Shown piece after piece: positions 5,807 to 58,307 of a stretch of DNA of 64,000 nucleotides; the first letter of the stretch is position 1, and each line of letters starts with the position of its first letter. Source of the stretch: an uncultured Prevotellaceae bacterium (lineage in GTDB: Bacteria; Bacteroidota; Bacteroidia; Bacteroidales; Bacteroidaceae); NCBI GenBank assembly GCA_900316445.1, contig ONCZ01000002.1, forward strand, positions 5,986 to 69,985, written 5' to 3'. A program made the position numbers and the translations under genes. Below the pieces are notes generated by a model. That model was given only the letters and a program-made list of their open reading frames with translations. It was not told the DNA's origin and ran no database searches.

Positions 5807-5874
5807 GCATTTTTCTTTGAAACCACAAAACTTTTTCGACGGAAAATGCAATTTTTACCTAAAAAGGAGTATTT

Positions 5875-12084: not shown

Positions 12085-12098
12085 TAGATTATTATCAT

Positions 12099-41070: not shown

Positions 41071-42165
41071 CTATTCAATCATGTTCACGATGAGTACAAT
41101 GTCGGTGGCATTGACTTTTTGATCACCGTTCATGTCGGCAGCATCCTTGTTGAAGTCCTCCGTTGGGTTCACGATATAGTTTGCCACCGCATGCGCATCA
41201 TTGATGTCTACCTTTCCATCACCATTCACGTCGCCTTTATTCAGACAAATGCGAGAGATACCCTTGAGTGTAGACCCCTCATAATAATAGAAATAGATGA
41301 TGCCTGAAAAAACTTCCTCAGGAGCCGTAAAGTTCAGCGTTTTACCGACAATCTCCACTGTACCTTTCGATGCGTATGCCGAAGTCAAAGAATAGTCCTC
41401 AGGAAGTCCTGTTTCCAGTGACACCGTTTTTCCTGCCTCTACCCTATAGTACTTGGGCGGTATGGCATAAGTAGTTATGGTTTTTTCTCCGTTAGTAAGT
41501 GTCACCTCTGTCGTTTCTGTGAGCCTTGTTCCCAGAATAGCCGTATGACTATCTCCGTCTATCTGAGCTGCCTCACTGACAGAACCACATTTTATGCTGG
41601 TGGCAGCCGACATGTTTGTATAACCCCGATAGCTGATCATTGGCTGACCACTACCATCAATATTCGCATAGAACTGGTATATGTCAAAGTAGGGCGCATC
41701 CTTCTCCATCTGCGAGCCCATTCCATAGAATGTGATATCACACAGACCAGGTGTATAGAAATAAGAGAAGTCGCTGATGTAGTTGTTGCTGACATCCAAC
41801 TTCAGGCTTTCGGACTGTATAAATGCCAGGATATTGATGTTCTCCAAATGGTTGTTGCTCAGGTTGAGCTCACGCAGTGATTCCAACGGCACCAATGGCG
41901 ACACATCGCTGATATCGTTATAACTGAGGTCGAGCTTGGATACTGCTGTCAGGTTAGCGACATCACGGATATCCGTAATCTCCAGTCCTGACAGGTTCAG
42001 CGTAGTGATGGTATCTGTTTGGGTCTGCAGCACATCGTCTGATTCACCAAGACCAATATGATGCCGTACACCATTTTCAAACTCAGGCGAATAAAAAGTC
42101 ACCTTCTGGGCCTGCGCCACCAATGCAGTCATCATGAGGACTGCTATACTTGCTATCTTTTTCAT
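41071..42165 (-). CDS. Internalin-type LRR protein with a C-terminal dockerin-like module
   Basis: Signal peptide. 22-aa LRRs ([28 protein letters not shown]). C-terminus [21 protein letters not shown]...[23 protein letters not shown]. Confidence 0.8.
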
Positions 42166-45100
42166 TCTCTGTCTTTGTTTGATCCTAAATAAATGTCGTC
42201 TGCCATATTATCCATTCCCGACTTAGTGGCAAGGGTAACGCTATAAAGCGATGGCTTCAGGTCTTCACCCTTGAAATCACCAGTCCTTAGGGTTCCGCAT
42301 GTTATTTCTACACCATTAGTTTCCTGATTAAGCGGGATAATGGTTATGCGATCATTGGCCCAATAAATGGTCATATAGAATTGCGTCAGGTTCGAACCAC
42401 CACCTTTTTCTTTATCTGTCATCGGCTTGACAGCATTAGGGAAGAGCGTATCATATCGCTTGAGCTTCAGCATAATGCCATCATCAAGATATTGCATATC
42501 AAAGTGATACGTCGCAACAAACAGTTTTTCAGGATCATTGGATGCGCTAATCGTGATGTCTTTTATCTGTTTGTTACGTTTCTCTTTTTGAAAGTTCATT
42601 TTGATTCCCAAGCTGTTTTTAACCATTAACTTGAAATCGCAAGTAGTGTTATAGCTCGGATCGCCACTCTCATGCAGACCGTTCTTGGCATTTAAGCGGG
42701 AGTCATTTGCAATCAGACGGTCAGGAAGTTCTGCGTCATGCATGACTTGCTGCAGTTGTTTTGCGGCATTCACCAAGGTCTGGCCGGCTTCCATATAAGT
42801 ATACATCATACTCTTCAATGGCAAGTAAGTATCTGCAGTCAGCCCGTACAGCGTGCTGGCGCAGGTCATCACCTGCTCCAAGGTACTACCGAATTGAACG
42901 CTTTTGGCAGCATTAAACGCACTTACTACATTGCCCATCATCGCATTGGCATAATGGATATCATCAATGTTCACGATCATGTCTTTTCTGAATTTCTGCA
43001 AGATGGATTTCTCTGGCAGGAATATATTCTTTAGTTCCATGACGATGTCTTTGATCGTAGAAGAGCCGTTGTATATTCTATTGGCCGGGCCTATCTCGTT
43101 CAAGGTTTCCAGGGCAGTCTTTCCACCCACCCATTCATTCACATATTCAAAAAAGACTTTTACTGCTTCAAACTTGTCACGCTCGCCAGTATATAATTGG
43201 GCGAACTCCATCATCTTGTCTTTATACTGATAGCTGGAGAAGTCACCGAACACACCATCCATTCCTGGTGTCAGGCTGCTCAATCCCATCATCAGATAGC
43301 TGAAGTCTTCTTTGGCTTCACGATTCCAACTGTCCCACTTGTTCGGGTGTGTCTTGTTGATTAAGACTTCCTCTCCAGCCAACTTCCAACCCGACATCGT
43401 AACGATTGTTTTTTCAGTGATTTCTTCTTGGATACCGCTCCTATCCCATCTGCCCTTGGATATGAGATACAGTTTGAATTCAGTATCTCTTCTGAGCTCC
43501 ATGTCATCAAAAACAATATCTATCTCCTGGGGCTTTTTATTCAAAATCCTGATGTCAGACACTTCACCACGAAAGACAGGCTTTTCTCCATTCAAAATGT
43601 CTTTCCATGTATCGAAATATGTAAGATGGTTTTGCTGGACAAGCTCTGCGATGACCGATCCAACCCAGGCGTATTCTTCATTGGGATTAACGATGGTAAA
43701 CCTAAGATGATGCTTCCCGTCCTCCACGTAGAATTGCATGTCGGAAGATTTTTGCAGATCATACTCACCCTCGTTAGGTGTATAGTCCTTTTTCAATGTA
43801 CCATGGATGGTCACAGTATTCAATCCCGGCTGTATGGTGGCTGTTGCAGACTCATACTCATGTGACTCGTCTCCCAGTACGGTCATGGTCACTTTCGTTC
43901 CTACCGGTATCCTCTGGCGGGAGAAGATGGTACCACGGGCATTGACGGTCACATCATTATCAGAGAATTTCACCTTCAGCCCTCTTACCGGCGGGTACTT
44001 GTCACATTCAATACGTCCTGTGATCATACCATACTCCAAAGCAGCTTTTTCCTCGTCCAGAGGCTCTGACACCGTCACTGTCAGCGTGTTCGACTTAGCC
44101 ACCTGCTTCTCACCATTTTCATCATAATAAGCCATCATTAATGAATAGGTGTATGTGCCAGCAGCAGGCGGATAGTCAACATATTCCAGATTGCCAGAAT
44201 CATGTCTTACCTGATCATTGTAATCAAATTGTACACCATTGATATCTGTACGAGTGATGCGGTAGCTGATTTCATCAGGAACAACATTGAACTTCAAACG
44301 AACCAGGCCGTTCTCTTCAGTTGCAGACATATTCAATTCGACAGGCGAAACGTTATTTCCTTCTATTGCAACGATGCTCTTAAACTTATTCCAAGGTTCT
44401 ACTGCCGCATACTTGTCTATACTTTCTTCTGGTACATGGAGGATGACATTTTTAAGCTCTACACTAGAAAATACAGAAGTATCTGTTGATGGCACCTCTG
44501 TAGCTAAACAGACAAAGTCGGTTAGGCCGCTGCAATGACTGAAAGCATATCTATCAATGATTGTTACGCTATTGGGAATCGTGATGGAGATCAAGCCGCT
44601 GCAATACATGAAAGCCCCCTCTCCTATGCTCGTTACGCTGTTGCCAATTGTGACGGAGCTCAGGTTGCTGCAATACATGAAAGCATAGTTCTCTACGCTC
44701 GTCACGCTGTTGCCAATTGTGGCGAAGGTCAGGCTACTGCAATAACTGAAAGCATCTTTTCCTATGCTTGTCACGCTGTTAGGAATCGTGATGGAGGTCA
44801 GACTGTTGCATCCTTCGAAAGAACTACTACCTATACTTGTCACGCCGTTGGGAATCGTGACGGAAGTCAGACCGGTGCAGCCACTGAAAGCAGACTCTCC
44901 TATACTTGTTACGCTGTTGGGAATCGTGACGGAGGTCAGTCTGCTGCAACCTGAGAAAGCATCGTCTCCTATGCTTATCACGCTGTTGGGAATCGTGATG
45001 CAGGTCAGGCCGCTACAATAAGAGAAAGCATCGTCTACTATGCTTGTCACACTATTGGGAATCGTAATAGAGGTTAGGCCGCTGCAATAAGCAAAAGCAC

Positions 45101-45857
45101 CGTTTTCTATGTTCGTCACGCTGTTAGGGATCGTGATGGATGTCAGACTTTTGCAGCCAGAGAAAGCTCCGTGTCCGATGCTCGTTACGGTTTTGGGAAT
45201 GGAGATAGTGGTCAGGCTGCTGCAGTTATTGAAAGCATCGTATCCTATGCTCGTCACGCTGTTGGGAATCGTGACGGAGACCAGGTTCGTGCAATCACAA
45301 AAAATTCTATTACTTATGCTTGTCATGCTATTGGGAATCGTGATGGAGGTCAGACCGCAGCCTTCGAAAGCACCGTGACCTATGCTCGTCACGCTGTTAG
45401 GAATCGTAATGGAGGTCAGTCTGCTACATCTATAGAAAGCACCGCTACCTATGCTCGTCACGCTGTTAGGAATCGTGACGGAAGTCAGGCCCCTGCAACC
45501 AGCAAAAGCATAGTCTCCTATGCTTGTCACGCTGTTAGGAATCGTAACGGAGGTAAGGCTCCAGCAGCCATCAAAAGCAAATTTTCCTATGCTCGTCACG
45601 CTATTGGGAATCGTAACGGAGGTAAGGTCCCAACATCTTTGGAAAGCATATTCTCCTATGCTCGTCACACTATAGTTGACGCCCTCATAAGTAAAGTACG
45701 GAGGGATATCTACATGGCCGGAGTAATAGTTTTGATTACTTACCACTTCAGCTTCCCTGTTTTCGCTTATGTTGTACATAACGCCATCAATCTCAACCGC
45801 TGCATTTGCCGCCAACGGTAAGATGATGAGGAGAAATAGTAATAATAGTTTTCTCAT
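42162..45857 (-). CDS. BspA-type LRR surface protein (17 x 23-aa repeats) with a large uncharacterised C-terminal region
   Basis: Signal peptide [19 protein letters not shown] when started at the ATG at 45857. Repeats of [14 protein letters not shown].xAFxGC. No dockerin and no CTD recognised. Its stop overlaps the next gene's start (ATGA at 42162-42165). Confidence 0.8.
44500..45675. repeat. Coding tandem repeat, about 69-nt period x17 (LRR units)
   Basis: Recurrent gctcgtcacgctgtt(g/a)ggaatcgt(g/a)a(c/t)ggaggtcag blocks on the plus strand. Confidence 0.85.
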
Positions 45858-45891
45858 TGTTATTGTTGTCTTCTTGTTAATGATTTGTCTG

Positions 45892-45899
45892 CAAAGATA
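45892..45899 (-). promoter_or_regulatory. -7 box (TATCTTTG on the minus strand) heading the LRR/C10 operon
   Basis: caaagata lies 35 nt upstream of the ATG at 45857, just downstream of hairpin copy 3. Confidence 0.5.
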
Positions 45900-45905
45900 C
45901 AACAA

Positions 45906-46903: not shown

Positions 46904-46963
46904 AACCCAAAAATAAAGAAAAAAATTTCAAAAAGTTTATTTGCACATTTCAGATATTTTCCG

Positions 46964-46971
46964 TACCTTTG
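46964..46971 (+). promoter_or_regulatory. -7 box TACCTTTG for the VirE-like gene
   Basis: Matches TAnnTTTG, 24 nt upstream of the ATG at 46995. Confidence 0.5.
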
Positions 46972-46994
46972 CAGAGAATACAAACGAAGGCATT

Positions 46995-49190
46995 ATGGCA
47001 CCAAGAATCACGTTAATCAAGAACTACCGGAACAAGGAAACCCTGCGGCTGATGGAGCAGCGGGAAGTGGCAGAACTCATCAGCCAGGGCGAGTACGAAG
47101 ACCAGGTCAGCACGTTCCGCAGGGACCTGCCGACGATGCGGTATGCCCATGTCAGCAACAACGGCACCCTTGAGGGCTACGAGAACTGGCCGAAGGACCT
47201 GCCGCGTATTTGTTTTGCGCTGGAACAGGAGAACCGCAACCACGAGTTAGTGACACGAGGATACACAGGGCTCGTATTATTAGAGGTAAACAACCTGACC
47301 AGCTACGATGAGGCCGAGGCTGTGCGTCGCGGTGCCGGAGAGATGCCCCAGACGCTGATGGCGTTCGTGGGGGCCGACGGAATGTCGGTGAAGATTGTAT
47401 GTAGGGGGGAGTTGTTAGAGGCAGTTCAGGTAGAGGCGGTTCAGACCACCCCGCCCTACGGGCAACCCCTCCTGACTCAGGAGGGGAAGGGATTACCACT
47501 TTCCGCTGAACAGATTGCTCTGTTCCATGAGAACCTCTATGAGCGGGCAAGGCTGATTTATAATGGACAGTTAGGCGTCACCATCGAGAAGCTGGAGCCG
47601 CTGACACAGCGCATCTGCTACATGAGTTCAGATCCGAGATTAGTTTATAATCCGTTGGCAACGCCTATTTATGCCAAGGCCGAGAAGCCGACTGCTTCAA
47701 TCTCCCATCAGACCGCCTACAGCCAGAGGACGGAGATTTCTGACCGTGACCTCTATCGCAGTCAGCAGGTCATCTTCGAGTTCAACCTCACGAAGGCCTA
47801 CGACGACACGGAGGGCATCGCCGACAAGGAGGAACGCCGTCACGCCACGTTGAAACGTCTGGCACAGTACTGTCAGGAGACGGGCATCCCGATGGCCGTC
47901 GCCCAGCGGCAGGCCATCATGCAGTCGGCATTCTGGGGCGAGGAGCAGCTGGTGAAGAAGGTGTTTGAGAACGCCTATCGGGAGGAGCATGTCAGGAAAT
48001 ACATGGAGAAGAAAGGCATCCAGCGCACGAAGACCATCCCGCCGGAAACGCTGCTGACGATGAAGATCAACATCTTCCTCAACGCGAACTACGAACTGCG
48101 GAAGAACGTGATGCGGGGTGTCGCCGAGTACCGTATGAGGACGGGCGTCGGCTTCTCTTATCAGGATCTGACGGAGGAGGCCCGCAACTCCATTACGATG
48201 CGGGCCCTGGAACAGGGCATCCGCTGCTGGGACAAGGACATCCGCCGCTATGTGAACTCCGACGACATCGAGCGTTACGATCCTGTGAATGACTATCTGG
48301 AGCATCTGCCGAAGTGGGATGAAAAAGACAGAGTGACGGCGATGGCAGAGAGAGTTCCTACGGAATGGGCGGACTGGACTCACCTCTTCCATATCTGGAT
48401 GCGCTCGATGGTAGCGATGTGGTTAGGCAAGGGCCAGTTGACGGGAAACGCCCTCGTACCTTTATTAATAGGAAGGCAGGGCTGCGGCAAGTCATCGTTC
48501 TGCCGTATCCTGCTGCCCCGCGACCTGATGGACTACTACAACGACCGCATCAACTTCAAGAACGAGCAGGACCTGAACCTCGGTCTGTCGTCGTTTGCGC
48601 TGATCAACCTCGACGAGTTCGACCGTGTGACGCAACGCCAGCAGATCGTGCTGAAGTACCTCGTCTCGACGGCAGACCTGAAATACCGTCCGCCTTACGG
48701 CAAGGCGTACACCTCTAACCGCCGCTATGCCTCGTTCATCGGCACCACCAACGAGCAGATGCAGCTGACGGACCCGACGGGTTCGCGTCGTTTCGTCTGT
48801 GTGGGCATCGACGGCGACATCGACTTCCTGACGCCTGTGCAGCACGACCAGCTCTATGCCCAGCTCGTGCAGGAGATCCGCCAGGGAGAGCGTTACTGGC
48901 TGACGAAAGAAGAGGAGCGCAGTCTGATGGAGCACAACCTGCAGTACCAGCGCCTCAACGGTCTTGGCGAGATGCTGATGGCCGTTGTGCAGAGACCTCG
49001 CAACGATGAGGAAGGCGAGTGGCTATCGCTCAATGATCTCTCCTCAATGCTCAAATCCCACTTCAAAGGCTACAAGGAAGATGAAGGCACCTTCCGCAAG
49101 ATCGGCAATTACCTCAGCCGTTCAGAATACAAGTTCCAGAGCAAGCACACCAACGCCGGTGCCCTCTATTGGGTGATGCGGAAAGTGTAA
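46995..49190 (+). CDS. VirE-like (virulence-associated protein E) P-loop primase/helicase-type protein
   Basis: Walker A (LLIGRQGCGKSSF) and Walker B-like (ALINLDEFD). The long N-terminal domain is typical of Bacteroidales VirE/BT4734-like proteins. ATG at 46995 is preferred over the TTG at 46941. Confidence 0.75.
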   Translation: MAPRITLIKNYRNKETLRLMEQREVAELISQGEYEDQVSTFRRDLPTMRYAHVSNNGTLEGYENWPKDLPRICFALEQENRNHELVTRGYTGLVLLEVNNLTSYDEAEAVRRGAGEMPQTLMAFVGADGMSVKIVCRGELLEAVQVEAVQTTPPYGQPLLTQEGKGLPLSAEQIALFHENLYERARLIYNGQLGVTIEKLEPLTQRICYMSSDPRLVYNPLATPIYAKAEKPTASISHQTAYSQRTEISDRDLYRSQQVIFEFNLTKAYDDTEGIADKEERRHATLKRLAQYCQETGIPMAVAQRQAIMQSAFWGEEQLVKKVFENAYREEHVRKYMEKKGIQRTKTIPPETLLTMKINIFLNANYELRKNVMRGVAEYRMRTGVGFSYQDLTEEARNSITMRALEQGIRCWDKDIRRYVNSDDIERYDPVNDYLEHLPKWDEKDRVTAMAERVPTEWADWTHLFHIWMRSMVAMWLGKGQLTGNALVPLLIGRQGCGKSSFCRILLPRDLMDYYNDRINFKNEQDLNLGLSSFALINLDEFDRVTQRQQIVLKYLVSTADLKYRPPYGKAYTSNRRYASFIGTTNEQMQLTDPTGSRRFVCVGIDGDIDFLTPVQHDQLYAQLVQEIRQGERYWLTKEEERSLMEHNLQYQRLNGLGEMLMAVVQRPRNDEEGEWLSLNDLSSMLKSHFKGYKEDEGTFRKIGNYLSRSEYKFQSKHTNAGALYWVMRKV

Positions 49191-49195
49191 AAAAT

Positions 49196-49227
49196 AAATC
49201 CCGAAACGACCAAACATTTCGGGATTT
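49196..49227. terminator. Conserved CCCGAAAC hairpin, copy 4
   Basis: aaatcccgaaacgaccaaacatttcgggattt followed by a T-run, between convergent genes. Confidence 0.8.
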
Positions 49228-49369
49228 ATTTTTAATCTTTTCTGTTTTCATGTTACCAGCCAAGGAAACCGTCAAGAATCTTGTTCAAATCGACAGCATT
49301 GTTTTGCTTTGTGGACTTACTGCCCTTTCCTGCAGTTTTATTAGCAGACTTTTTTACTTTACCCTGATT

Positions 49370-49933: not shown

Positions 49934-50155
49934 CTACCGAAACAATATGTCTGGGCAGACTCCAGCAACAAGATTGATTCCCGTGGGACCCATCTCGTCA
50001 AACTCCGGCATGAATCCCAATGCCTGAACATCGTCAATTGTAGCACGCTGAGCCTGAACCGTCAGACCTAAGCCCAGCATCAATACCATTATCAGTTGTT
50101 TTCTTATATCCTTAAAAGTAAGTATATTCATTGTCTTTTCTTCTTTAGAATGCAA
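49934..50155 (-). CDS. Small secreted hypothetical protein
   Basis: Signal-like segment IRKQLIMVLMLGLGLTVQAQ. Overlaps the stop of the upstream gene. The start may be the ATG at 50131. Confidence 0.3.
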   Translation of the reverse strand: MHSKEEKTMNILTFKDIRKQLIMVLMLGLGLTVQAQRATIDDVQALGFMPEFDEMGPTGINLVAGVCPDILFR

Positions 50156-51131
50156 GGAATGGGCGGATGCGCAGATCGTTCTTGGAAATGATATGAGTTA
50201 TTTGGAAACCAGAATTTGCCAAGAAATATGTAAGAATGACTCGGGTTGTTTTGGGATATGTCTTTTCAGGAGAACATGTCCAAAATCTATAGTTATTGAT
50301 ATTGACCGTTGTATCGCCCGCTTTTCTCAAGTCACCCAAAATCAGATCTCCAGCTTTGGAGCCATTATAGATCGGTTTCCCATTGGCATTATATCCATCA
50401 AATAGAGCGAAAGATCTCCAGTCAAGTTCAATACTTTCGTCAAATGTGAGACCGAATGACTGGTAGAAGGCTATATACTGTCCTGCACTGGGCATGAACC
50501 AACCACTGGTAATATTTCCAGGAGGAACGGGAACATCATAAGAAATAGGGACCTCAAGACCATTCCTGGCATCAATTTCAAAGAGTTTGTTAATGGATTC
50601 ATATCCAGAGGATTTATTGTTGATATGTTTACTACCATCTGTAATTTCCAAATCCGACAGGGCAATAGCCAATCCGCGATAGGTGTCGCTATTCTTGTCA
50701 GCCGATCCTGGTAAACCAACATACACGATCATGGCAATCGGCGTGATGCCGATAGTTCCTGCCGGATAGACCTTGCCGTCCAAGGCAATCACACTGCCCA
50801 GATCTTCTGCTGTGGCTTCACTCAACGCCTTGCCACGGTTCTGGCGCTTTGCCTCACTCATCATCAGATAGTCAGCAATGGTCTTCACGTCTTCCATATC
50901 GATTTTCCCATCGACATTGGCATCAGCCCAGATCTTCTTGACATCGACAATGACAGAAGTCCATAAGTTGTCTAAGTCAGAACGAGTCTTTAAGATGTAT
51001 TCTGATACAATCTCCACGATGTCAGCGACATCTACCTTACCGTCATTGTTGGCATCGCCCGATCCTGCGAACATAGCCGACGGCGTAAAGCACGCAAAAA
51101 ACAGAATTAACAGTTTCTTTCTCATATCCAT
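50145..51131 (-). CDS. Secreted protein with an N-terminal dockerin-like module and a DUF1566/Lcl-like C-terminal domain
   Basis: Signal peptide, then GDANNDGKVDVADIVEIVSEYI...ADANVDGKIDMEDVKTIADYLM. C-terminal motifs SGWFMPSAGQYIAF, FWTCSPE, LRIRPFLAF (weak DUF1566 resemblance). Confidence 0.65.
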   Translation of the reverse strand: MDMRKKLLILFFACFTPSAMFAGSGDANNDGKVDVADIVEIVSEYILKTRSDLDNLWTSVIVDVKKIWADANVDGKIDMEDVKTIADYLMMSEAKRQNRGKALSEATAEDLGSVIALDGKVYPAGTIGITPIAMIVYVGLPGSADKNSDTYRGLAIALSDLEITDGSKHINNKSSGYESINKLFEIDARNGLEVPISYDVPVPPGNITSGWFMPSAGQYIAFYQSFGLTFDESIELDWRSFALFDGYNANGKPIYNGSKAGDLILGDLRKAGDTTVNINNYRFWTCSPEKTYPKTTRVILTYFLANSGFQITHIISKNDLRIRPFLAF

Positions 51132-51170: not shown

Positions 51171-51300
51171 AGCATTATTTTCTAAACTGCCAAGAAAAAT
51201 GTTGGGAAATTCATTTCATTAGCCTAAACTGCATAAGACCAAGGACAGTCTAAAACCATTGAAAATTATAGACTTTCTTGGTTATATCATTATAAATTTG

Positions 51301-51308
51301 TAACTTTG
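51301..51308 (+). promoter_or_regulatory. -7 box TAACTTTG for the radical SAM operon
   Basis: Matches TAnnTTTG, 19 nt upstream of the ATG at 51327. Confidence 0.5.
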
Positions 51309-51326
51309 CAGGCAAAATAGCGAATC

Positions 51327-52691
51327 ATGCAGACGATCTATCAGACAGCCAAACCCTTCGACCAGCTCCTGAAGAAACAAATGATGGCGGCAGGGCAGAC
51401 GTATAGGCCGATGTATTATGTGGTGGAACAGCCCGTAGAAGAGGGGCTGCTGCTCTACCATACGATGACAAAGGCGATGCTGTTGCTCACTCCTGAGGAA
51501 GCGGAGACGTACAGGACAAGCCCTACTGCCCTACCCCAACTGGTTGAGCAGTGGTTTCTGGTGCCAGAGTCGCATGACGACCGTCTGCTGAGCCGTCAGA
51601 TCAGAGACGTGGCCAGGATGCTTGAGAAGAAAACGGGAGCCATCACTTCGTACACCATCCTCACCACCACCGACTGCAATGCCCGCTGTTTCTATTGCTA
51701 TGAGTTGGGGCGTCCAAGAGTTCCTATGAGTGAGGAGACCGCCATAAAGACAGCAGACTATATCATCAACCATTGCAAGGGCGAAAAAGTTTCAATACAC
51801 TGGTTCGGCGGAGAGCCTCTATACAACAAGCCCGTTATCTCGCAGATCTGTCAACGACTTAAGGATGCAGGTATCCAATACGCTTCTACGATGACCTCAA
51901 ATGGCTATCTGTTTGATGACAGCATCGTCACTGAGGCCAAGGAAGAATGGCGTCTGGAAAAGGTGCAGATCACGCTTGACGGTACAGAGCAGACCTACAA
52001 CCGCTGTAAGGCCTATATATATAAAGATGTGAATGCCTTCCGCCGTGTGATTGGCAATATCCACAAACTACAGGATGCCGGCATCCACGTCAGCATCCGA
52101 CTCAACATCGATATGCATAATGCCGAGAACCTGTCGGAACTGGCAGATGAACTTCACAGGGAATTCAACGATTCCAAAGGTATTTCGGTCTATATACATG
52201 CGCTGTTTGAAGAAGTGAAAGGAAGTAAGGCCATACACGATGAGGAGAAAAGGAAGTTCGTCTTCGACCAAATCAACGACATCGAGAGTCGGCTGGCAGA
52301 TTACGGCTTGTTAAAACCCCGCCAACTGAAACGAGAAGTCAAGACAAACCGCTGTATGGCTGACAACGACCATAGCGTTGTCATTGTTCCAGACGGACAT
52401 ATCGGGAAATGTGAGCACTACTCAGAGGATCATTTCGTCGGACATATTGGACAAGAGGAATGGGACGCTCAGATGCTGGATCATTTCAGGGACACACGTG
52501 ACGAGATCACTGCCTGTGCCACCTGTTTCAACTATCCGGACTGCATCAGGCTGAAACTGTGTAAGGATAATCCCAACTGTTATCAGGAGGAACGTGAGCA
52601 CAAGCACAGCAAGTTACGTCAAAGCATTTTGAGAGCCTTCAACAATTATAAAGACCAGCAAGAAGAAAAACAAGATGAAGCACAAGATTGA
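51327..52691 (+). CDS. Radical SAM / SPASM-domain peptide-modifying enzyme
   Basis: CxxxCxxC (TTDCNARCFYCYE), GGEPL, and a C-terminal Cys-rich SPASM-like region (NRCMA...GKCEHY...CATCFNYPDCIRLKLCKDNPNCY). About 100 aa of N-terminal extension. Confidence 0.85.
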   Translation: MQTIYQTAKPFDQLLKKQMMAAGQTYRPMYYVVEQPVEEGLLLYHTMTKAMLLLTPEEAETYRTSPTALPQLVEQWFLVPESHDDRLLSRQIRDVARMLEKKTGAITSYTILTTTDCNARCFYCYELGRPRVPMSEETAIKTADYIINHCKGEKVSIHWFGGEPLYNKPVISQICQRLKDAGIQYASTMTSNGYLFDDSIVTEAKEEWRLEKVQITLDGTEQTYNRCKAYIYKDVNAFRRVIGNIHKLQDAGIHVSIRLNIDMHNAENLSELADELHREFNDSKGISVYIHALFEEVKGSKAIHDEEKRKFVFDQINDIESRLADYGLLKPRQLKREVKTNRCMADNDHSVVIVPDGHIGKCEHYSEDHFVGHIGQEEWDAQMLDHFRDTRDEITACATCFNYPDCIRLKLCKDNPNCYQEEREHKHSKLRQSILRAFNNYKDQQEEKQDEAQD

Positions 52692-52929
52692 GATAGCACC
52701 TTTGCTCGACTACTATGTCATCGCCGTCAAGGATAAGGAAACGGGCGATCTGGTTGAGACCTTCACGCTCAACGAGAGTGGCACAGATATGCTCAGGCTC
52801 TTCTGCCAGGATAAGGATGCGGCAACTGTTGCTCAGGAAATAGCAGAGATGTATGAAGCGCCATTGGAATTAGTCACAAAAGACGTATCAGCCTTTGCAG
52901 AAAAGTTACAGGAGAAAGGACTGATTTAG
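52675..52929 (+). CDS. PqqD-family protein (RRE-like peptide chaperone)
   Basis: 84 aa. Pattern LNESGTDMLRLFCQDKDAATVAQEIAEMYEAPLELVTKDVSAFAEKLQEKGLI. Overlaps the radical SAM gene by 17 nt. Confidence 0.8.
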   Translation: MKHKIEIAPLLDYYVIAVKDKETGDLVETFTLNESGTDMLRLFCQDKDAATVAQEIAEMYEAPLELVTKDVSAFAEKLQEKGLI

Positions 52930-52954
52930 TGACATTAAATAAGCAATATCAAAA

Positions 52955-52986
52955 AATGGGGACTGACATGATTGTCATTCCCCATT
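52955..52986. terminator. Hairpin terminator between the convergent PqqD gene and the small peptide gene
   Basis: aatggggactgaca-tgat-tgtcattccccatt, 13 of 14 bp paired. An A6 run on the plus-strand 5' side gives a T-run for the minus-strand transcript. Confidence 0.7.
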
Positions 52987-53010
52987 AAATTTCAGATGTG
53001 TGTGAGAAGA

Positions 53011-53139
53011 TTATGCTTCACCATCATCATCACATTCATCAGCAATTTTCTCTTTACTCGGCTCAACAACGTTGTCCAATACAACAACCTCATCAACCTT
53101 TACTTCTTCCATTTCGGGAGCAAAATACTTCTTTTTCAT
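53011..53139 (-). CDS. 42-aa acidic single-cysteine peptide (candidate RiPP precursor), not in the ORF track
   Basis: Hand translation: MKKKYFAPEMEEVKVDEVVVLDNVVEPSKEKIADECDDDGEA*. It has its own -7 box (53206-53213), its own terminator (52955-52986), and is preceded by hairpin copy 5. Confidence 0.5.
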   Translation of the reverse strand: MKKKYFAPEMEEVKVDEVVVLDNVVEPSKEKIADECDDDGEA

Positions 53140-53205
53140 TTCTCAATTATTTTTAAACGTTTAAAATATTAATATCTTTTAAGTTGCAATTACACTTTTG
53201 CGCTG

Positions 53206-53213
53206 CAAATTTA
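53206..53213 (-). promoter_or_regulatory. -7 box (TAAATTTG on the minus strand) for the small peptide gene
   Basis: caaattta lies about 67 nt upstream of the ATG at 53139. Confidence 0.45.
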
Positions 53214-53218
53214 AGCAT

Positions 53219-53250
53219 AAATCCCGAAATGACCAAACATTTCGGGATTT
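53219..53250. terminator. Conserved CCCGAAAC hairpin, copy 5
   Basis: aaatcccgaaatgaccaaacatttcgggattt, one mismatch relative to copies 2, 4 and 6. Confidence 0.75.
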
Positions 53251-53303
53251 ATTTTACGATTTAGTGCAATATTTTGTCAATTTACTCACTTAACAATCAT
53301 CAC

Positions 53304-54806
53304 TTACTTAACCACGACCTTCTTACCATTCTTGATGTAGAGACCCTTTCTGGTCGGAGTGCTAATGCGCTGACCCCTCAGGTTGTACCAAGCGTCGTTG
53401 CCAGATTCTGCAGCAATACGGCTGATACCTGTGGCACTCTCTTCATCACCATCAAAAAGAATTCTGCTCAACTCGGCAACTTTCTCGTTAAGAACGATAT
53501 CTTCGGAACCACGGACAGAAGCCTTAGCCGTATATGAAGTCAAGATCTGGAGATATGCCTTATGTGCACCTGTCGTACGAGCCTTTGTAACCGGCGTGAA
53601 GCCCTTGCTACCAACGTAGAAATTCGAGTAGAGTCCGTCTGTCGGCTGAATCGTGATTGCCTCATCGGTGTTATTGCCTACCATCATGTTGGCATAGTTT
53701 GCCTGAACAGCAGCAGACTTAATCGTATAATCACCCTGAGGACCCTTAATATAAAGCGGAGTACCAGCTGATACACGCTTAACAGGTGTAATCCAAAGTG
53801 AACCATTCTCATATCCTATCACGGTATAGGCAGTCACTGACTTCTGGTCGGTGAAATCAAGGTCAACATTAGCACAGAGAGAAGTCTGATTTGCTTCACC
53901 TATCGACAATGCCCAATCTGTACCAGCCTTAGCAGCAGGCAGAGCAGCTACACGGATGTAAGCTTTATGAGCACCAATGTTACGTGCAGATGTAAACGGC
54001 GTGAAGCCCTTGGTTCCCAAGAAATAGAACTTGTCTTCACTTCCTGTAGGATCAACACTAATAGCCTCATCCGTATTGTTACCAATCAGGAAGCTCTTGA
54101 AATAAGTCTTTGTCAGTGTTGTCGTAGCCACAGCGAAGGTTCCGGCCTCATTACCTTTGACGTAAATTGGCGTTCCAGCTGGAACCTGGCTAATGCGTGC
54201 CGACCAAATACCGTCCTCGTCAATACCTGTTACAAGGTAAGCGGTCAAATCTTTATTATCTGTGAAGTCTAGATCTTTGTCACAAATAAACGTCGTCGCC
54301 TTAGAATCACCAATAGTAATTGAAACGCCCTCAGCAATCGTGACAGTGGCAACATCGCCACCAGCCTGCTTTGTAGAGGTGCCTTCGGGATCAACAACCA
54401 GGTTCTGGTCTTCAGTACCATTGAGTGAAACTTTTCCAGTCTCTGCTTCATTTTCAGCCTCCAAGGTAATCAGCACACCATCACCGTCACTTGTCAAAGT
54501 AGCATTCTCATTATCGTATGACAAGAAACGATAGATATTGTTACTGGGATCAACCTGCTGGAACTTCAACTCACGGCCGGCACCGTATGAGCCTTTCATG
54601 CCTGCGCTTTTGACACTCACCTTAGCAGGCAACTTCAGATCGAATTGGAAAGCCGTGTTGCTCGTAGGTTTGTCAATCGTGACCTCCATCTGACCCGTAC
54701 CGCCTTTAGTAAGGGTAACATCTTTAACACTAATTGCCGACTGGGCATAAGCCATTGCTCCACAAAGGGAGACAGCCATCATCGTAAATAGTTTCTTCAT
54801 GTTCAT
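53304..54806 (-). CDS. Surface protein with an N-terminal cohesin-like domain, two copies of a ~125-aa repeat domain and a T9SS-type C-terminal tail
   Basis: Signal peptide. AISVKDVTLTKGGTGQMEVTIDKPTSNTAFQFDLKLPAKVSV resembles the cohesin beta-sandwich start. Internal duplication (LDFTDNKDLTAYLVTG...GAHKAYIRV and LDFTDQKSVTAYTVIG...GAHKAYLQI). Tail WYNLRGQRISTPTRKGLYIKNGKKVVVK. Confidence 0.55.
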   Translation of the reverse strand: MNMKKLFTMMAVSLCGAMAYAQSAISVKDVTLTKGGTGQMEVTIDKPTSNTAFQFDLKLPAKVSVKSAGMKGSYGAGRELKFQQVDPSNNIYRFLSYDNENATLTSDGDGVLITLEAENEAETGKVSLNGTEDQNLVVDPEGTSTKQAGGDVATVTIAEGVSITIGDSKATTFICDKDLDFTDNKDLTAYLVTGIDEDGIWSARISQVPAGTPIYVKGNEAGTFAVATTTLTKTYFKSFLIGNNTDEAISVDPTGSEDKFYFLGTKGFTPFTSARNIGAHKAYIRVAALPAAKAGTDWALSIGEANQTSLCANVDLDFTDQKSVTAYTVIGYENGSLWITPVKRVSAGTPLYIKGPQGDYTIKSAAVQANYANMMVGNNTDEAITIQPTDGLYSNFYVGSKGFTPVTKARTTGAHKAYLQILTSYTAKASVRGSEDIVLNEKVAELSRILFDGDEESATGISRIAAESGNDAWYNLRGQRISTPTRKGLYIKNGKKVVVK

Positions 54807-54856
54807 TTAATATTTTAAATTAATTATTAGTTACACATTTATATACTATTTGGTTG

Positions 54857-54864
54857 CAAATTTA
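54857..54864 (-). promoter_or_regulatory. -7 box (TAAATTTG on the minus strand) for the cohesin-like gene
   Basis: caaattta lies 51 nt upstream of the ATG at 54806. Confidence 0.5.
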
Positions 54865-54869
54865 AAAAA

Positions 54870-54906
54870 AAATCCCGAAACGACCAAACATTTCGGGACT
54901 TTTTTT
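54870..54906. terminator. Conserved CCCGAAAC hairpin, copy 6, with runs on both sides
   Basis: aaaaaaaaatcccgaaacgaccaaacatttcgggacttttttt. Confidence 0.8.
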
Positions 54907-54938
54907 CAAAAATAGTATGATTTTTCTTTTTTCCCCCT

Positions 54939-56207
54939 TTATTCTGCTATGGTGTGCTCCTTCACAATCTGGATTACCTTCACCAAATCAGCCACATTGA
55001 CAGTACCATCTCCATTGACATCGGCCAGTGTCAAATTAAAGACAACGGGAGGTGCGCCCATGATATAATCGACAATGGCATTTACATCATTCAAGTCAAC
55101 AATACCGTTGCCATTGACATCGCCTGGGAGATCAACACTACCGGTACACTTGGCATAGTAGATCTTGCCATGAGCCGTGGCGCGTCTTCCGATTCTGGTG
55201 CCAGCCCGGACAGCACTGGCTTTCTCTACCATATATATATATACATAGGTGTCTTCATTTACATCGTATGGTACTGACAGCCATTTGCGTGTCGTACTGG
55301 ATATTTGGACTGGGGCATTGTCGCCAACCTTCACATGGAAGGCAAAGTCTGACTCATTCTCTGCTTCTATTTTGATGAAGCCCTTACCTTTGCTCACCAT
55401 CATGGTGATACCTCCGGCAAAGTCAATGGCATAGCCACCATCTCCAGGAGAATAGCTATGATTTTTAACAGCATTATTCACATTATCGACAGCAGCGTCA
55501 GTAAGTAGCGACCCAATATAAATGACACCCTCGCCATCCTCATCCTCAAAACCATCATCATTCGACCCGTCCAATGTAAAGAGAATGCCTCTATAAGAAT
55601 AGTTAGACAGGTCTGCTGACGACAACTCCGAAGGATCAAAGGCCACAGTTTTATCATTTTCGAGAGGAACTACTGCATCATCAATATAGACCGTGACACT
55701 CCTTAGCCCAGAGACTGACGCGCCATTCGTTGCTGACTGAGGTGATGCGATAAACTTTAGGGACAATGGTTCTGACAGCATGCCATAGGATAATTGTGTA
55801 ATACCGTAATCCATTGTCTTCTGATTATAAACCAGTTCTCCCAACTCTGTCTGACCGACATACGCCTTGAGTTCCAAGCCGTAAGCATTATCGCATGTGA
55901 CACTGACACTCTTAATCGTGCCAGAAAAAGTTTGTGCGGACGTCAGTGTCAGTGAACTCTCTGCGACGTCAGAAGGACTGAGATAGAAGTAAAGAGCATC
56001 GGCATCTTCAGAATAGCCAAAATTGCCGACGGTTCCTGTGTCGGAGTAAGTCCACACTATGGCACCATTTGCATTCATGATGCTGCCTTTTGACGGAGTG
56101 CCAAAGCCGATAGTATATTCTGAGGCCTGGCCTGTCAACGAACTCAGCAATAAGGGCAGAGCCAACATGAATGCCCTCCAGTTTTTTGAGTAGTGATAAT
56201 TTGACAT
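54939..56207 (-). CDS. Secreted protein of unknown function with a C-terminal dockerin-like module
   Basis: Signal peptide (AFMLALPLLLSSLTGQA). C-terminus GDVNGNGIVDLNDVNAIVDYI...LADVNGDGTVNVADLVKVIQIV. Only 26 nt downstream of the PP2C gene, with no promoter box between. Confidence 0.7.
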   Translation of the reverse strand: MSNYHYSKNWRAFMLALPLLLSSLTGQASEYTIGFGTPSKGSIMNANGAIVWTYSDTGTVGNFGYSEDADALYFYLSPSDVAESSLTLTSAQTFSGTIKSVSVTCDNAYGLELKAYVGQTELGELVYNQKTMDYGITQLSYGMLSEPLSLKFIASPQSATNGASVSGLRSVTVYIDDAVVPLENDKTVAFDPSELSSADLSNYSYRGILFTLDGSNDDGFEDEDGEGVIYIGSLLTDAAVDNVNNAVKNHSYSPGDGGYAIDFAGGITMMVSKGKGFIKIEAENESDFAFHVKVGDNAPVQISSTTRKWLSVPYDVNEDTYVYIYMVEKASAVRAGTRIGRRATAHGKIYYAKCTGSVDLPGDVNGNGIVDLNDVNAIVDYIMGAPPVVFNLTLADVNGDGTVNVADLVKVIQIVKEHTIAE

Positions 56208-56233
56208 AAATGATTACATTTGAATATGATTGA

Positions 56234-58234
56234 CTATTGTTGATTGCCTTGTATCCGCAGACAGAGTATCGTCAGGTCGTCGCTCTGCTCTGCCCCTTTC
56301 ACATGCTTCTGTACCTCGACATTCAGCATACCGATGGTCTGCTCCGCACTCTCATAGTCGAGCTGTTCCATCAGTTCAAGCAGATGCTCATCGCCGAACT
56401 GTTGTTTATCTGCATCCTCTGCCTCATTGAGACCATCGCTGTACACCAGGAAGGGCATCATGCTGATATCCTCGACACACTCACCCTGATACTCCAGATC
56501 GGGCCAGAAGCCCAGGGGTGCATTGGGCAGCATATCCAGGAAACGGGCATGTCCCTCAGCATCCTTGATGACAGGGGGATTATGACCGGCATTGCAGAAC
56601 TCCAGCCTGCCGGTCTTGAGGTCTGCCACGCCGATGAACATCGTGACAAACATCATGTTCTCGTTATGATCAGCCAGCACCCCGTTCAGTCTGGTGGCAA
56701 TCTCTGCCGGCTGCAGCTGTTGTTTAGATGCCACGCGGAACATATTCACGGCAACAGCCATGAACAGCGAGGCGGGAACGCCCTTGCCACTGACATCCCC
56801 CAGACAGAAATACAGTTTCTCATTGAGGATGAAGAAGTCGTAGAGGTCTCCTCCGACAGCCTTTGCCGGCGTGATAGAGCCGAAGAGGTCGATATCCGTA
56901 CGTTCCGGGAAAGGCGGGAACACCCGTGGCACCATGCCCATCTGGATATCCCTGGCGATGCGGAGATCGCTCTCGATACGTTCTTTGGCCGTCGTGGTCT
57001 CCTCTAACTGGTCGTAGGCCGTCAGCAACTGCTGGTGAGCGTCCTCCAGTTTGTTGTGGGCAGCCTTCAGACGCCTGGCTGCTATATACCTGAAGAGGAT
57101 GAACACGATCAGGGCAACGATGACGATGCCCACGATGATGAGCGTATTGCGGTACTGAGCCCGCTGCTTCTCCAGTTCAAGCTCTCCCACATGGAAACGC
57201 GCATTCATCTCCGTCAGCTGCTGTTTCACATCGTGGGAATTAATGGAATCATTGAGGTTATACATCTCATGATAGAGCTGGGCTGCCTCTTGATAGCGTC
57301 CCAACACCTCCATGAGTTCTGCCCGCTGCTGACGCGTCTGGATCAGCACCGACTTATCGTCGGAGTCCATCATCAAGCTGACACTCTGGTCGTTCAGCTT
57401 TAGCGCTTCCTGATAACGCCCTTGTTTCTGGTATAACTTGGCCTGGTAGTAAAGCCACAACCTTTGGATATAGACCTCATCCTCCGCTCCCAGTTCCTTC
57501 ACCTTATTGAGCATCTCCTCCGCCCGTTCCAGTTTTCCCAGTCCGAGGGCTGCCTGGGCACAAGACATATAGTAATATCGCCAGCGGTTGGCAATCTCAC
57601 TTTCCTTAAATGTGGCTTGCTCATCCTTATAATAGGTGGTCAGGAACTTCTGCCACAGATCTGTCACATGTTCCAGGGTCCGGAAGTCCTCTGTTCTCAC
57701 CAGTTCCTCCGCATAATAAGAGAACACATCCGACAATTGTACGGGAAGCGAATCCAGCTCCATCAGGATGTCCACGCTCTTCTGATAGGAGGAGAGCGCC
57801 TCGTCAGGGTTGTACATGTTAGAATACACATTTCCCATGGCGTAATAGGCCATACCCATCCCGAAACGGTCCTGACGGTCTTTGGCATCATGGTACATGT
57901 CGTTCACCTCCTTGAGTCCGGCACTGGTATCTCCAGAGAAATTATAGAGGTTCACCAATAGCGTCCACACATCATAATAAGACTTCCACGACTTATGACT
58001 CTTCAACAGTTCCATCGTCTGCGGAAGTTCTTTCTTGAGGGAGTCATCCCATTCATTATTATAGAAGAAGGTCATTTTCAGCACCAAGGCTTCATCCTCC
58101 TTATTCATGTCTCCTTGCTGGCGTGCTTTGCGGAGAATGGAATCAAGCCGACTGATTTCCGTGGTTTCGTCAGCGAAAGCGACAACCGCAGAAATCTGCA
58201 TGATCATGATGATAGCCATTCTTACCAACCGCAT
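56234..58234 (-). CDS. TPR-repeat sensor fused to a SpoIIE/PP2C-family serine phosphatase (RsbU-like)
   Basis: N-terminal signal/TM, TPR-like repeats, a central TM (LIIVGIVIVALIVFILF), and a PP2C region (GGDLYDF...LGDVSGKG...NAGHNPP...SDGLNEA...DDLTILC). The ATG at 58234 is preferred because the longer ORF runs through the promoter box and hairpin. Confidence 0.8.
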   Translation of the reverse strand: MRLVRMAIIMIMQISAVVAFADETTEISRLDSILRKARQQGDMNKEDEALVLKMTFFYNNEWDDSLKKELPQTMELLKSHKSWKSYYDVWTLLVNLYNFSGDTSAGLKEVNDMYHDAKDRQDRFGMGMAYYAMGNVYSNMYNPDEALSSYQKSVDILMELDSLPVQLSDVFSYYAEELVRTEDFRTLEHVTDLWQKFLTTYYKDEQATFKESEIANRWRYYYMSCAQAALGLGKLERAEEMLNKVKELGAEDEVYIQRLWLYYQAKLYQKQGRYQEALKLNDQSVSLMMDSDDKSVLIQTRQQRAELMEVLGRYQEAAQLYHEMYNLNDSINSHDVKQQLTEMNARFHVGELELEKQRAQYRNTLIIVGIVIVALIVFILFRYIAARRLKAAHNKLEDAHQQLLTAYDQLEETTTAKERIESDLRIARDIQMGMVPRVFPPFPERTDIDLFGSITPAKAVGGDLYDFFILNEKLYFCLGDVSGKGVPASLFMAVAVNMFRVASKQQLQPAEIATRLNGVLADHNENMMFVTMFIGVADLKTGRLEFCNAGHNPPVIKDAEGHARFLDMLPNAPLGFWPDLEYQGECVEDISMMPFLVYSDGLNEAEDADKQQFGDEHLLELMEQLDYESAEQTIGMLNVEVQKHVKGAEQSDDLTILCLRIQGNQQ

Positions 58235-58263
58235 AGGCAGATAGGGTTTAGTTGATTTGGCTG

Positions 58264-58271
58264 CAAAAATA
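58264..58271 (-). promoter_or_regulatory. -7 box (TATTTTTG on the minus strand)
   Basis: caaaaata lies 30 nt upstream of the ATG at 58234. Confidence 0.45.
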
Positions 58272-58277
58272 AACAAA

Positions 58278-58307
58278 ATTCCCGAAACGGCCAAACGTTT
58301 CGGGAAT
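58278..58307. terminator. Conserved CCCGAAAC hairpin, copy 7
   Basis: aattcccgaaacg-gccaaa-cgtttcgggaatt. Confidence 0.75.

Follow-up and report, generated by a model that had tools for sequence, protein, structure and literature searches.

A short-peptide gene family associated with a radical SAM/SPASM enzyme: a probable RiPP locus, apparently split and reduced, in a rumen Prevotella

Introduction

A stretch of 64,000 nucleotides of contig ONCZ01000002.1 from an uncultured Prevotellaceae bacterium, termed here the window, encodes a radical SAM (S-adenosylmethionine) enzyme of the SPASM type and a PqqD-family protein (PqqD1) in tandem. Converging on this pair from the opposite strand is an open reading frame (ORF) of 42 codons, and a preliminary description of the sequence suggested that it encodes the precursor of a peptide that is ribosomally synthesized and then modified post-translationally (RiPP). 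Two questions are raised by this locus. Is the small ORF a gene whose product is the substrate of the enzyme, and if so what modification would be introduced? Few RiPPs are known from Bacteroidales, and a 2023 survey terms the class I bacteriocins of Bacteroidales 'elusive' (PMC10352776).

From comparison across genomes we consider it probable that the small ORF is the precursor peptide gene of a radical SAM/SPASM and PqqD RiPP system, that its product carries a four-residue thioether between Cys36 and Asp39, and that the system is split and reduced in Prevotella. The features discussed are collected in Table 1.

Conserved leader, variable core: the short peptide and its family

The ORF translates exactly as given in the preliminary description, as the peptide MKKKYFAPEMEEVKVDEVVVLDNVVEPSKEKIADECDDDGEA, with 14 acidic and 6 basic residues and one cysteine. 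The other structural statements made there also stand, i.e. the 17-nt overlap of the PqqD1 gene with that of the 454-amino acid enzyme, the CxxxCxxC triad, Cys-rich SPASM-type C-terminal region and N-terminal extension of about 100 amino acids of the latter, and the presence of a dedicated -7 box and a strong hairpin with a T-run around the small ORF. The exception is the distance from the end of the ORF to the PqqD1 stop codon, which is 81 nt, not 82 nt.

The peptide divides into a leader of approximately MKKKYFAPEMEEVKVDEVVVLDNVV and a core of approximately EPSKEKIADECDDDGEA, where the single Cys36 lies within the sequence C-D-D-D39. A search of 5.8 billion proteins gave 32 homologues, of 41-74 amino acids. 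On alignment M1, K2, K3, A7, P8, E9 and M10 are invariant, and conservation is 90% or higher at K4, Y5, F6, E11, E12, V13, K14, V20 and C36. Variation is free over the last 15-25 residues, which include cores with one cysteine (xCDDDGEA, xCPEEDEA and others) and cores with three (GCPTKTCDADTCPADSD). Over the first 20 codons, compared in eight loci as 28 pairs, pS (the synonymous difference) is 0.47 and pN (the nonsynonymous difference) is 0.13. The ratio pN/pS of 0.285 shows that conservation of the peptide acts at the protein level. On these comparative data the 42-codon minus-strand ORF is a genuine gene.

The family is large. When proteins are clustered at 90% identity, at least 1,216 clusters match a profile of the leader; at 50% identity, in a set of 1.84 billion proteins, there are at least 1,756 matching representatives. 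All the matching proteins are short, and none has a name beyond 'hypothetical protein'. The leaders share the consensus M-x-K-[YF]-x-x-[PA]-E-[MV]-E-[VI]-[VI]-x-[FVL], which in Clostridia continues with ...EDVITTS. Members of the family occur in Prevotella, other Bacteroidales, Oscillospiraceae, Lachnospiraceae and Faecalibacterium, in samples of rumen and human gut. We found no description of it in the openly searchable literature; paywalled atlases or supplementary tables may list an uncharacterised cluster. Rules of the antiSMASH style detect ranthipeptides solely via the SCIFF model (PMC13289728), and for this reason the ranthipeptide rule probably misses the family. Scans of the window peptide and eight diverse family peptides against Pfam and NCBIfam (for the window peptide, the latter at E <= 1) gave nothing beyond a sub-threshold match, that of clostridial leaders to StsA, a sactipeptide model with a cut-off of 42 bits (E = 0.05, 13.6 bits). 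An Rfam scan of the locus gave no significant family. The peptide gene is the only leader-type ORF found in the 64-kb window.

The peptide gene accompanies the enzyme across phyla

One genome per species of GTDB was scanned, giving 200 stretches with relatives of the radical SAM enzyme. The best 80 of these (39-79% identity; loci are denoted below by L numbers and peptides by P numbers) come from Prevotella, other Bacteroidales, Oscillospiraceae, Lachnospiraceae, Faecalibacterium and others, and are mostly metagenome-assembled genomes from rumen or gut. Using an iterated hidden Markov model of the leader, a small ORF of this type was found in 58 of the 80 loci, and within 2 kb of the radical SAM gene in 56.

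The preliminary description proposed that homologues of the enzyme in related genomes be examined for an adjoining peptide, and in the Prevotella clade it is present at all 11 loci (the window, L001-L005 and L007-L011, where L002-L005 are four places with one identical peptide). The enzymes of the ten further loci are 63-87% identical to that of the window, and at each of the ten the peptide gene is convergent and placed after the PqqD gene as it is in the window. The convergent orientation had been regarded as atypical; it is no oddity of one genome. The contigs that encode the divergent peptides P0148 and P0139 have the same layout, i.e. the peptide convergent on PqqD and radical SAM genes. 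Elsewhere the arrangement changes. The peptide gene is upstream and co-directional in L006, L012, L019 and L021-L023, and in Clostridia it lies upstream or downstream of the enzyme gene, often in 2-5 copies. Outside the Prevotella clade the flanking genes are also different. The proposal of a precursor is thus supported by co-occurrence across phyla despite changing orientation and neighbours, and further by the conserved leader and hypervariable core, by fusion of the enzyme with PqqD in L012 and by sister clusters with a peptidase and an ABC exporter (see below).

Comparison of the window with L001 is instructive. The two enzymes are 87% identical and the PqqD proteins 86%, and the cores are unrelated, with one cysteine in the window and three in L001. 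Unrelated cores next to enzymes of such similarity form a pattern typical of diversifying RiPP cores. This bears on whether the peptide might instead give rise to a fixed redox cofactor, like PqqA and MftA. Such a role would account for the three-gene logic of short peptide, PqqD-like chaperone and radical SAM/SPASM enzyme, and for the lack of an exporter or protease nearby. Cofactor precursors have invariant cores, however, no further pathway genes were seen, and neither PqqE nor MftC is among the best 25 of the 54 NCBIfam matches of the enzyme. The equivalog model of PqqD (TIGR03859) scores 23.7 bits on PqqD1, below its cut-off of 46. We therefore reject membership of the pyrroloquinoline quinone and mycofactocin families, and consider a cofactor precursor highly improbable.

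The radical SAM/SPASM enzyme and PqqD1

The enzyme has the radical SAM triad C117-NAR-C121-FY-C124 (C117-x3-C121-x2-C124). The Pfam Radical_SAM match covers residues 112-274, leaving an N-terminal extension of around 105 amino acids. In alignments of homologues seven C-terminal cysteine residues are invariant (C343, C362, C397, C400, C406, C412 and C418), and the motifs G357-x4-C362 and C397-x2-C400-x5-C406 have SPASM-like spacing. The Pfam SPASM model itself gave no match to the window enzyme. With both the triad and a Cys-rich C-terminal region the enzyme has the attributes of the generic radical SAM/SPASM class.

The best 25 of 54 matches in NCBIfam release 20 were considered. The leading profiles are all RiPP SPASM maturases, comprising TIGR04463 (141 bits), Clo7bot (121), CefB (104), FlmE/OhkG (99), geopeptide (92) and PapB (88). 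The one structure in the Protein Data Bank matched by sequence is CteB (5WGG; E = 1e-14). An AlphaFold2 (AF2) model has a mean predicted local distance difference test (pLDDT) score of 66.7, and is good in the N-terminal domain and barrel and poor in the SPASM portion. Residues ~20-100 form strands and then helices, followed by the radical SAM barrel. A Foldseek search with this model places CteB first, followed by TigE, SkfB and SuiB, over ~360-425 aligned columns with template modelling (TM) scores of just 0.38-0.49. TigE comprises a RiPP recognition element (RRE) at residues 3-85, the radical SAM domain at 108-332 and SPASM at 352-469 (PMC10878394), and the domain boundaries of the window enzyme agree with this layout. 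The N-terminal domain is common to other RiPP radical SAM families, a point that the preliminary description had missed. On the basis of its modelled secondary structure and the length of the Foldseek alignments alone it is a candidate RRE; profile-profile comparison with the PqqD proteins using hhalign gave no similarity (probability 0.1).

We considered whether the enzyme might be a radical SAM cyclopropyl synthase such as TvgB or TigE, and rejected this. These proteins have a GYW motif, the tyrosine of which ligates auxiliary cluster I (PMC10878394). The motif was not found before the SPASM region of the window enzyme, where the conserved N341-x-C343 occupies the position.

PqqD1 scores above the gathering threshold of PF05402, so that an RRE is encoded together with the enzyme. 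A PqqD gene follows that of the enzyme in 27 loci, mostly of Bacteroidales. In L012 (8001-9593) the two are fused as a single protein of 530 amino acids, and the peptide gene lies 76 nt upstream in the same direction.

The cores and the likely cross-link

Cysteine is present in 169 of 176 unique cores. Asp or Glu is found at the third position after cysteine (Cys+3) in 44% of cases, compared with 17 +/- 2% in shuffled cores, and none of 1000 shuffles reached the observed value; the sequences are related to each other, so that the shuffle result overstates their independence. In 104 mutually dissimilar cores the frequency is 45%, against 19 +/- 3% in shuffles. At least one C-x-x-[D/E] occurs in 134 of the 169 cores that contain cysteine, and amongst the window peptide and its close homologues in 29 of 31 Cys-containing sequences (counted by eye from the alignment). 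There are additional preferences for Pro, Ser or Thr at +1 and for Gly at -1.

The enrichment of C-x-x-[D/E] across the family, together with C36-D-D-D39 in the window, favours a small Cys-to-Asp/Glu thioether ring, and a thioether from Cys36 to the side chain of Asp39 is the most economical prediction. There are precedents for such chemistry. Within C-X3-D/E motifs PapB joins Cys to Asp/Glu by a thioether, and it tolerates n = 0-6 spacer residues (PMC9413430), and NxxcB makes a single Asn-x-x-Cys thioether (PMC8326336).

The same locus and substrate might alternatively be engaged in a different chemistry, i.e. the joining of Cys sulfur to an alpha-carbon in a sactionine, its attachment to the C-terminal residue, or a modification without any part for Cys, e.g. 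a C-C cross-link or epimerisation. PapB is also able to link cysteine to the C-terminal residue (PMC12373016), the clostridial leaders have their weak match to StsA, and no named family cut-off is reached by the window enzyme. Moreover, the Foldseek neighbours cover thioether (CteB, SkfB), Lys-Trp C-C (SuiB) and cyclopropyl (TigE) chemistries; structural neighbours that catalyse different reactions mean that fold alone does not give the chemistry. Against this, cysteine is the only near-invariant residue of the core and Asp/Glu is specifically enriched at Cys+3, which points to a Cys-Asp/Glu pair, and for the cyclopropyl reaction the lack of GYW and the presence of Cys343 at the corresponding position before SPASM are contrary indications. 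In our judgement a different chemistry is rather unlikely.

Promoter, palindrome and terminator

The peptide gene is flanked by its own expression signals (Table 1). The string TAnnTTTG of the Bacteroidetes-type -7 box is enriched in the window (55 matches compared with 36.6 +/- 6 expected), and the wider string GCTTAAATTTGCAGCGCAA is largely retained upstream of the peptide gene in six of seven other loci, the exception being L010. We note that in L010 the peptide gene comes after the stop codon of p500 (an upstream gene discussed below) and lacks the -7 box. A scan using the sigma-70 consensus gives no information on Bacteroidetes promoters.

Between promoter and start codon lies the perfect 14-nt palindrome TTTAAACGTTTAAA. 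Each of the ten further Prevotella-clade loci (L001-L005 and L007-L011) has a single exact copy in the corresponding place, although the remainder of the 5' untranslated region has diverged. Elsewhere in the window no copy that might signal a regulon was found, even with two mismatches allowed. The palindrome is probably an operator, and looks like that of a dimeric regulator.

Between the convergent genes is a hairpin of 13 pairs (52986..52955) followed by UUUUUU. The surrounding 88-nt stretch (53012..52925) folds at -22.9 kcal/mol (z = -4.0), and none of 200 shuffled sequences is as stable. A second hairpin separates p500 from the peptide promoter, and belongs to a 40-nt element (ATAAATCCCGAAAyGACCAAACATTTCGGGATTTATTTT) that occurs twice in near-identical form in the window, at 49194-49233 after a VapE-like gene and at 53217-53256 after p500. 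This element is a reused terminator module.

The possibility that the small ORF has arisen by chance, and that the enzyme and PqqD1 act on another substrate, can be considered here. The ORF is short, no source names it except for one locus labelled 'hypothetical protein', and no protein-family model matches it. Its conservation, the purifying selection, the co-occurrence across phyla and the possession of promoter, operator-like site and terminator all argue against chance, which is effectively refuted by the comparative data; we attach almost no weight to it.

Table 1. Positions of the features discussed, in window coordinates
Feature	Position	Strand	Basis
HPr-kinase-like / ScmC-like P-loop protein, 285 aa	11227..12084	+	55% identity to 289-aa L006 protein; directly downstream of valS
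Second PqqD-family protein, PqqD2, 89 aa	12099..12368	+	ORF; precomputed PF05402 match; follows HprK-like gene
Two tandem -7 boxes, TAAATTTG and TAACTTTG, for the radical SAM gene	51293..51308	+	end of second box 18 nt before the radical SAM start codon
Radical SAM/SPASM peptide maturase, 454 aa	51327..52691	+	ORF; Pfam Radical_SAM and Fer4_12 matches
PqqD-family peptide chaperone (RRE), PqqD1, 84 aa	52675..52929	+	PF05402, 45 bits against cut-off of 23.4
Intrinsic-terminator-like hairpin and U-run ending the peptide transcript, between the convergent genes	52949..52986	-	fold and sequence
Precursor peptide gene (probable), 42 aa, net charge -8	53011..53139	-	ORF, homologues, selection on leader
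Perfect 14-nt palindrome TTTAAACGTTTAAA, placed 12 nt before the peptide ATG	53152..53165	.	uniqueness and conservation
Bacteroidetes-type -7 box TAAATTTG for the peptide gene	53206..53213	-	motif scan
Terminator-like 15-pair hairpin of the upstream p500 gene, separating p500 from the peptide promoter	53217..53252	-	parts seen upstream of the peptide promoter in L002, L007, L008, L011

A remote HPr-kinase-like module and fuller clusters

The peptide family is accompanied in other genomes by additional genes. Homologues of an HPr-kinase-like (HprK-like), ScmC-like P-loop protein adjoin the radical SAM gene in 32 fetched loci (33 sources when the window is counted), S24/S26 peptidase homologues occur in 22 fetched sources and ABC exporters in 16-20. 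With a profile of the ScmC-like proteins, a match to HPr kinase (1KO7) was obtained at E = 1.4e-5 in the region of the Walker A motif, GKSGTGKST. In L029 (Oscillospiraceae) the cluster comprises peptide, ScmC/HprK-like, radical SAM, peptide, PqqD, S24/S26 peptidase and ABC exporter genes. L038 (Prevotellaceae; 919-6003) has a second radical SAM gene, peptide, PqqD, S24/S26 peptidase, ScmC-like, radical SAM and ScmC-like genes. We note that there are accordingly two different radical SAM/SPASM genes, two ScmC-like genes and one PqqD gene in L038, and that its precursor is divergent (MKTEKKTYEEPTVQKVEFDF...CPGNSSECDPS). The enzyme of L006 is 79% identical to that of the window; this locus contains in order genes for a surface protein, the peptide, radical SAM enzyme, PqqD1, an M6 peptidase, PqqD2 and an ABC exporter, with a 289-amino acid ScmC-like gene and a second peptide gene on the other strand.

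In the window the corresponding pair of HprK-like and PqqD2 genes is found at 11.2-12.4 kb. The preliminary description had overlooked this module, as it had the palindrome and the size of the family. The precomputed Pfam ScmC match of the 285-amino acid protein is weak; the NCBIfam ScmC model did not match it at E <= 0.01, and gave 30 bits for the L029 homologue against a cut-off of 125. PqqD2 shares 52% identity with the second PqqD of L006 and 41% with that of L038, and is of the type closest to the single PqqD of clusters in Clostridia. The order valS, ScmC-like, PqqD2 is kept in 16 metagenome loci with close relatives (75-98% identity) wherever the contig extends far enough, with valS present in 15 and PqqD2 in 15. 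The 285-amino acid HprK-like gene is therefore a probable remote part of the same RiPP system, 40 kb from the peptide locus. HprK-like kinases of lasso-peptide clusters reportedly phosphorylate their precursors, as described in work on paeninodin. By analogy, this suggests that the HprK-like protein could add a second modification to the peptide.

In L099, L101 and L103 (e.g. L103, 3845-4300) an S24/S26 peptidase gene lies between those of the HprK-like protein and PqqD2, where the window has only a 14-nt gap (12085-12098). This indicates that the lineage of the window has lost a probable leader peptidase. No homologue of the S24/S26 or M6 peptidases or of the ABC exporters was found in the 64-kb window, bearing out the earlier statement that no protease or transporter gene is adjacent. 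The RiPP system would thus appear to be split and reduced in this Prevotella lineage.

Should the loss of peptidase and exporter mean that the cassette is decaying or retired, with no mature product, the gap and the missing homologues would be its traces. Yet none of the five genes is disrupted, purifying selection acts on the leader, and promoter, palindrome and ORF are kept in the ten further Prevotella-clade loci. The cores diversify and nevertheless stay in frame and retain cysteine, and a peptidase and exporter could be encoded elsewhere in the genome. We regard a retired cassette as improbable.

Genomic neighbourhood

Up to 10 kb from the peptide gene there are genes for surface proteins, a SpoIIE-type phosphatase, and VapE-like, PAP2 and SurA-like proteins. 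A conserved block (53304-58294, minus strand) contains a SpoIIE-type TPR-PP2C phosphatase, in some loci a STAS protein and a protein of 115 amino acids, the dockerin protein p422, p500 and the peptide. The full block from phosphatase to peptide occurs in L001-L003, L005, L007-L009 and L011, and p500 alone in L004 and L010. We considered p500 and p422 as possible parts of the RiPP system; their synteny with the peptide locus is limited to the Prevotella clade. In L006 and L012 the peptide genes likewise follow large surface-protein genes, with MBG and BspA leucine-rich repeat (BspA-LRR) domains.

The p500 protein (53304-54806, minus strand) is fast-evolving (31-56% identity). It has a signal-peptide-like N-terminus, two internal repeats of ~110 amino acids and a C-terminus that by eye resembles a sorting domain of the type IX secretion system; no Pfam or NCBIfam match to it was found. 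Type I dockerin domains are present in three neighbours (54939-56207, 50145-51131 and 41071-42165, all on the minus strand), which suggests that this rumen Prevotella possesses a surface system of the cohesin/dockerin-like kind.

On the other side, a gene of VapE-like/BT4734-N/DUF5906 primase-helicase type (46941-49190, plus strand) lies near that of the enzyme, as it does in L001 and L009. The stretch between the two varies, containing a dockerin protein, a methyltransferase or TraX, and the VapE-like flank may mark the border of a region that is mobile or variable. Large secreted proteins are encoded further upstream, comprising a C10 (streptopain-like) peptidase with BspA-LRR and Omp28 domains (36829-41037, minus strand) and a BspA-LRR protein of 1247 amino acids (42162-45905, minus strand). 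A C10-LRR protein is encoded ~1 kb upstream of the radical SAM gene in L002 and L004.

Proposed mechanism and significance

We propose the following mechanism. The peptide gene would be transcribed from its own Bacteroidetes promoter, probably under the control of a regulator binding TTTAAACGTTTAAA, and transcription would stop at the hairpin shared with the convergent operon of the enzyme and PqqD1. From the general behaviour of RREs, the conserved leader (MKKKYFAPEMEEV...) is expected to be bound by a PqqD-type recognition element, and the peptide handed to the radical SAM/SPASM enzyme. There a 5'-deoxyadenosyl radical and auxiliary Fe-S clusters would cross-link the sole cysteine. In view of the C-x-x-[D/E] motif the likeliest product is a four-residue ring of ranthipeptide type, with a thioether from the sulfur of Cys36 to a side-chain carbon of Asp39.

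A number of observations weigh against this interpretation. No leader match was found in 22 of the 80 loci, and two of the 32 close homologues (P0130 and P0141) lack cysteine. The window enzyme is far below every curated NCBIfam cut-off (340-600 bits), and those of L029, L006 and L021 likewise reach the cut-off of no named family. The AF2 model on which the structural comparison is based is of moderate quality, and the neighbours that it finds include SuiB, which makes a C-C cross-link, and TigE, which makes cyclopropylglycine (PMC10878394). The relatedness of the cores and the lack of peptidase and exporter homologues in the window count in the same direction, and the valS-side module would be tied to the peptide locus through synteny in other genomes alone. 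We note separately that the tail of P0130 (SSHTHLKFNGE) resembles a frameshifted core; some copies may be decaying.

A broader proposal can be put forward, which as a whole is doubtful. The locus could be the reduced Prevotella form of a widespread and uncharacterised class of RiPP, bearing one to four Cys-x-x-Asp/Glu thioether 'mini-rings' made by a distinct clade of radical SAM/SPASM enzymes, to which the HPr-kinase-like partner may add a modification, for example phosphorylation of the conserved Ser where leader and core meet. The Prevotella form would have lost the peptidase and exporter, would use a dedicated palindrome-binding regulator, and would have come to lie beside a surface-protein operon of cohesin/dockerin type and a SpoIIE-type phosphatase. 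If this is true, an intracellular or regulatory role would be suggested rather than that of a bacteriocin.

For a large and overlooked family of peptides in gut and rumen, the chemistry and role could bear on interactions between microbes. If the activity of the enzyme is indeed to close C-x-x-D/E as a minimal thioether ring on very diverse cores, it would be of interest to peptide engineers, as PapB has been. For annotation of the window the gain is a real gene of 42 codons, an operator-like site and a proposed functional link of two loci 40 kb apart.

Comparison with known systems

One of the closest known systems is that of PapB, the maturase of the ranthipeptide freyrasin of Paenibacillus polymyxa. 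Both are radical SAM/SPASM enzymes joining the sulfur of cysteine to the side chain of a nearby C-terminal Asp or Glu (in our case by prediction), the C-X3-D/E motif of PapA with its tolerated spacers (PMC9413430) is analogous to C-X2-D/E here, and the PapB model aligns with residues 106-407 of the window enzyme, i.e. the radical SAM and SPASM regions, with E = 7e-25. The window enzyme is nevertheless not a member of the PapB family, its 88 bits falling far below the cut-off of 340 (NF047865), and other members of our family score 70-84. The systems further differ in that the window peptide has a single C-X2-D/E and a leader of another family, the PqqD proteins stand alone, there is an HprK-like partner and the host is a Gram-negative member of the Bacteroidales.

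The streptococcal NxxcB/NxxcA system has a single four-residue thioether ring between cysteine and a carboxamide or carboxylate residue three positions away (PMC8326336), which is also the product predicted here. The partner there is Asn at Cys-3, in contrast to Asp/Glu at Cys+3 in our peptides, the leaders are unrelated and no specific similarity was found between the two systems. QhpD, another radical SAM/SPASM enzyme, makes Cys-Asp and Cys-Glu thioethers (PMC8326336); its model gives 48 bits on the window enzyme against a cut-off of 453, and its substrate is an enzyme subunit rather than a hypervariable peptide with a leader.

CteB, the maturase of the SCIFF peptide thermocellin, is the sole structure matched by sequence and the best in Foldseek, and the order of N-terminal domain, radical SAM barrel and SPASM is apparently the same. 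Unlike CteB, the N-terminal domain of the window enzyme has no similarity to an RRE at the level of sequence, and the PqqD proteins are separate. The window precursor gave no match of TIGR03973 type. The SCIFF maturase model TIGR03974 scores 51-53 bits against a cut-off of 425 for L029, L006 and L021, and is not among the best 25 of the 54 matches for the window enzyme.

In SynChlorMet (ScmC/ScmE) and other RiPP-type systems with HprK-like and PqqD proteins, an HPr-kinase-like P-loop protein is again found with PqqD and radical SAM/SPASM proteins. The scores for SynChlorMet are far under the cut-offs, as for ScmC above, and the kinase-like gene of the window is unlinked from that of the enzyme. 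To our knowledge the peptide and chemistry of the SynChlorMet (SCM) cassette are uncharacterised.

The maturases of the TIGR04463, Clo7bot, CefB and geopeptide families provide the best-scoring profiles apart from FlmE/OhkG. Clo7bot and CefB ('Cys-every-fifth') are peptide maturases by their NCBIfam names. The alignments with TIGR04463 and the geopeptide maturase take in much of the N-terminal domain, beginning at residues 35 and 40, and those with Clo7bot and CefB start at 108 and 103. The cut-offs of 400-600 bits for these families are far away, and their precursor families differ; for TIGR04463 three other members of our family score 111-138 bits, where membership requires 525. We know of no experimentally defined chemistry for any of the four. 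Taken together, these comparisons suggest that the locus behaves like a RiPP system of ranthipeptide or sactipeptide type, and that it stands outside the named families compared here.

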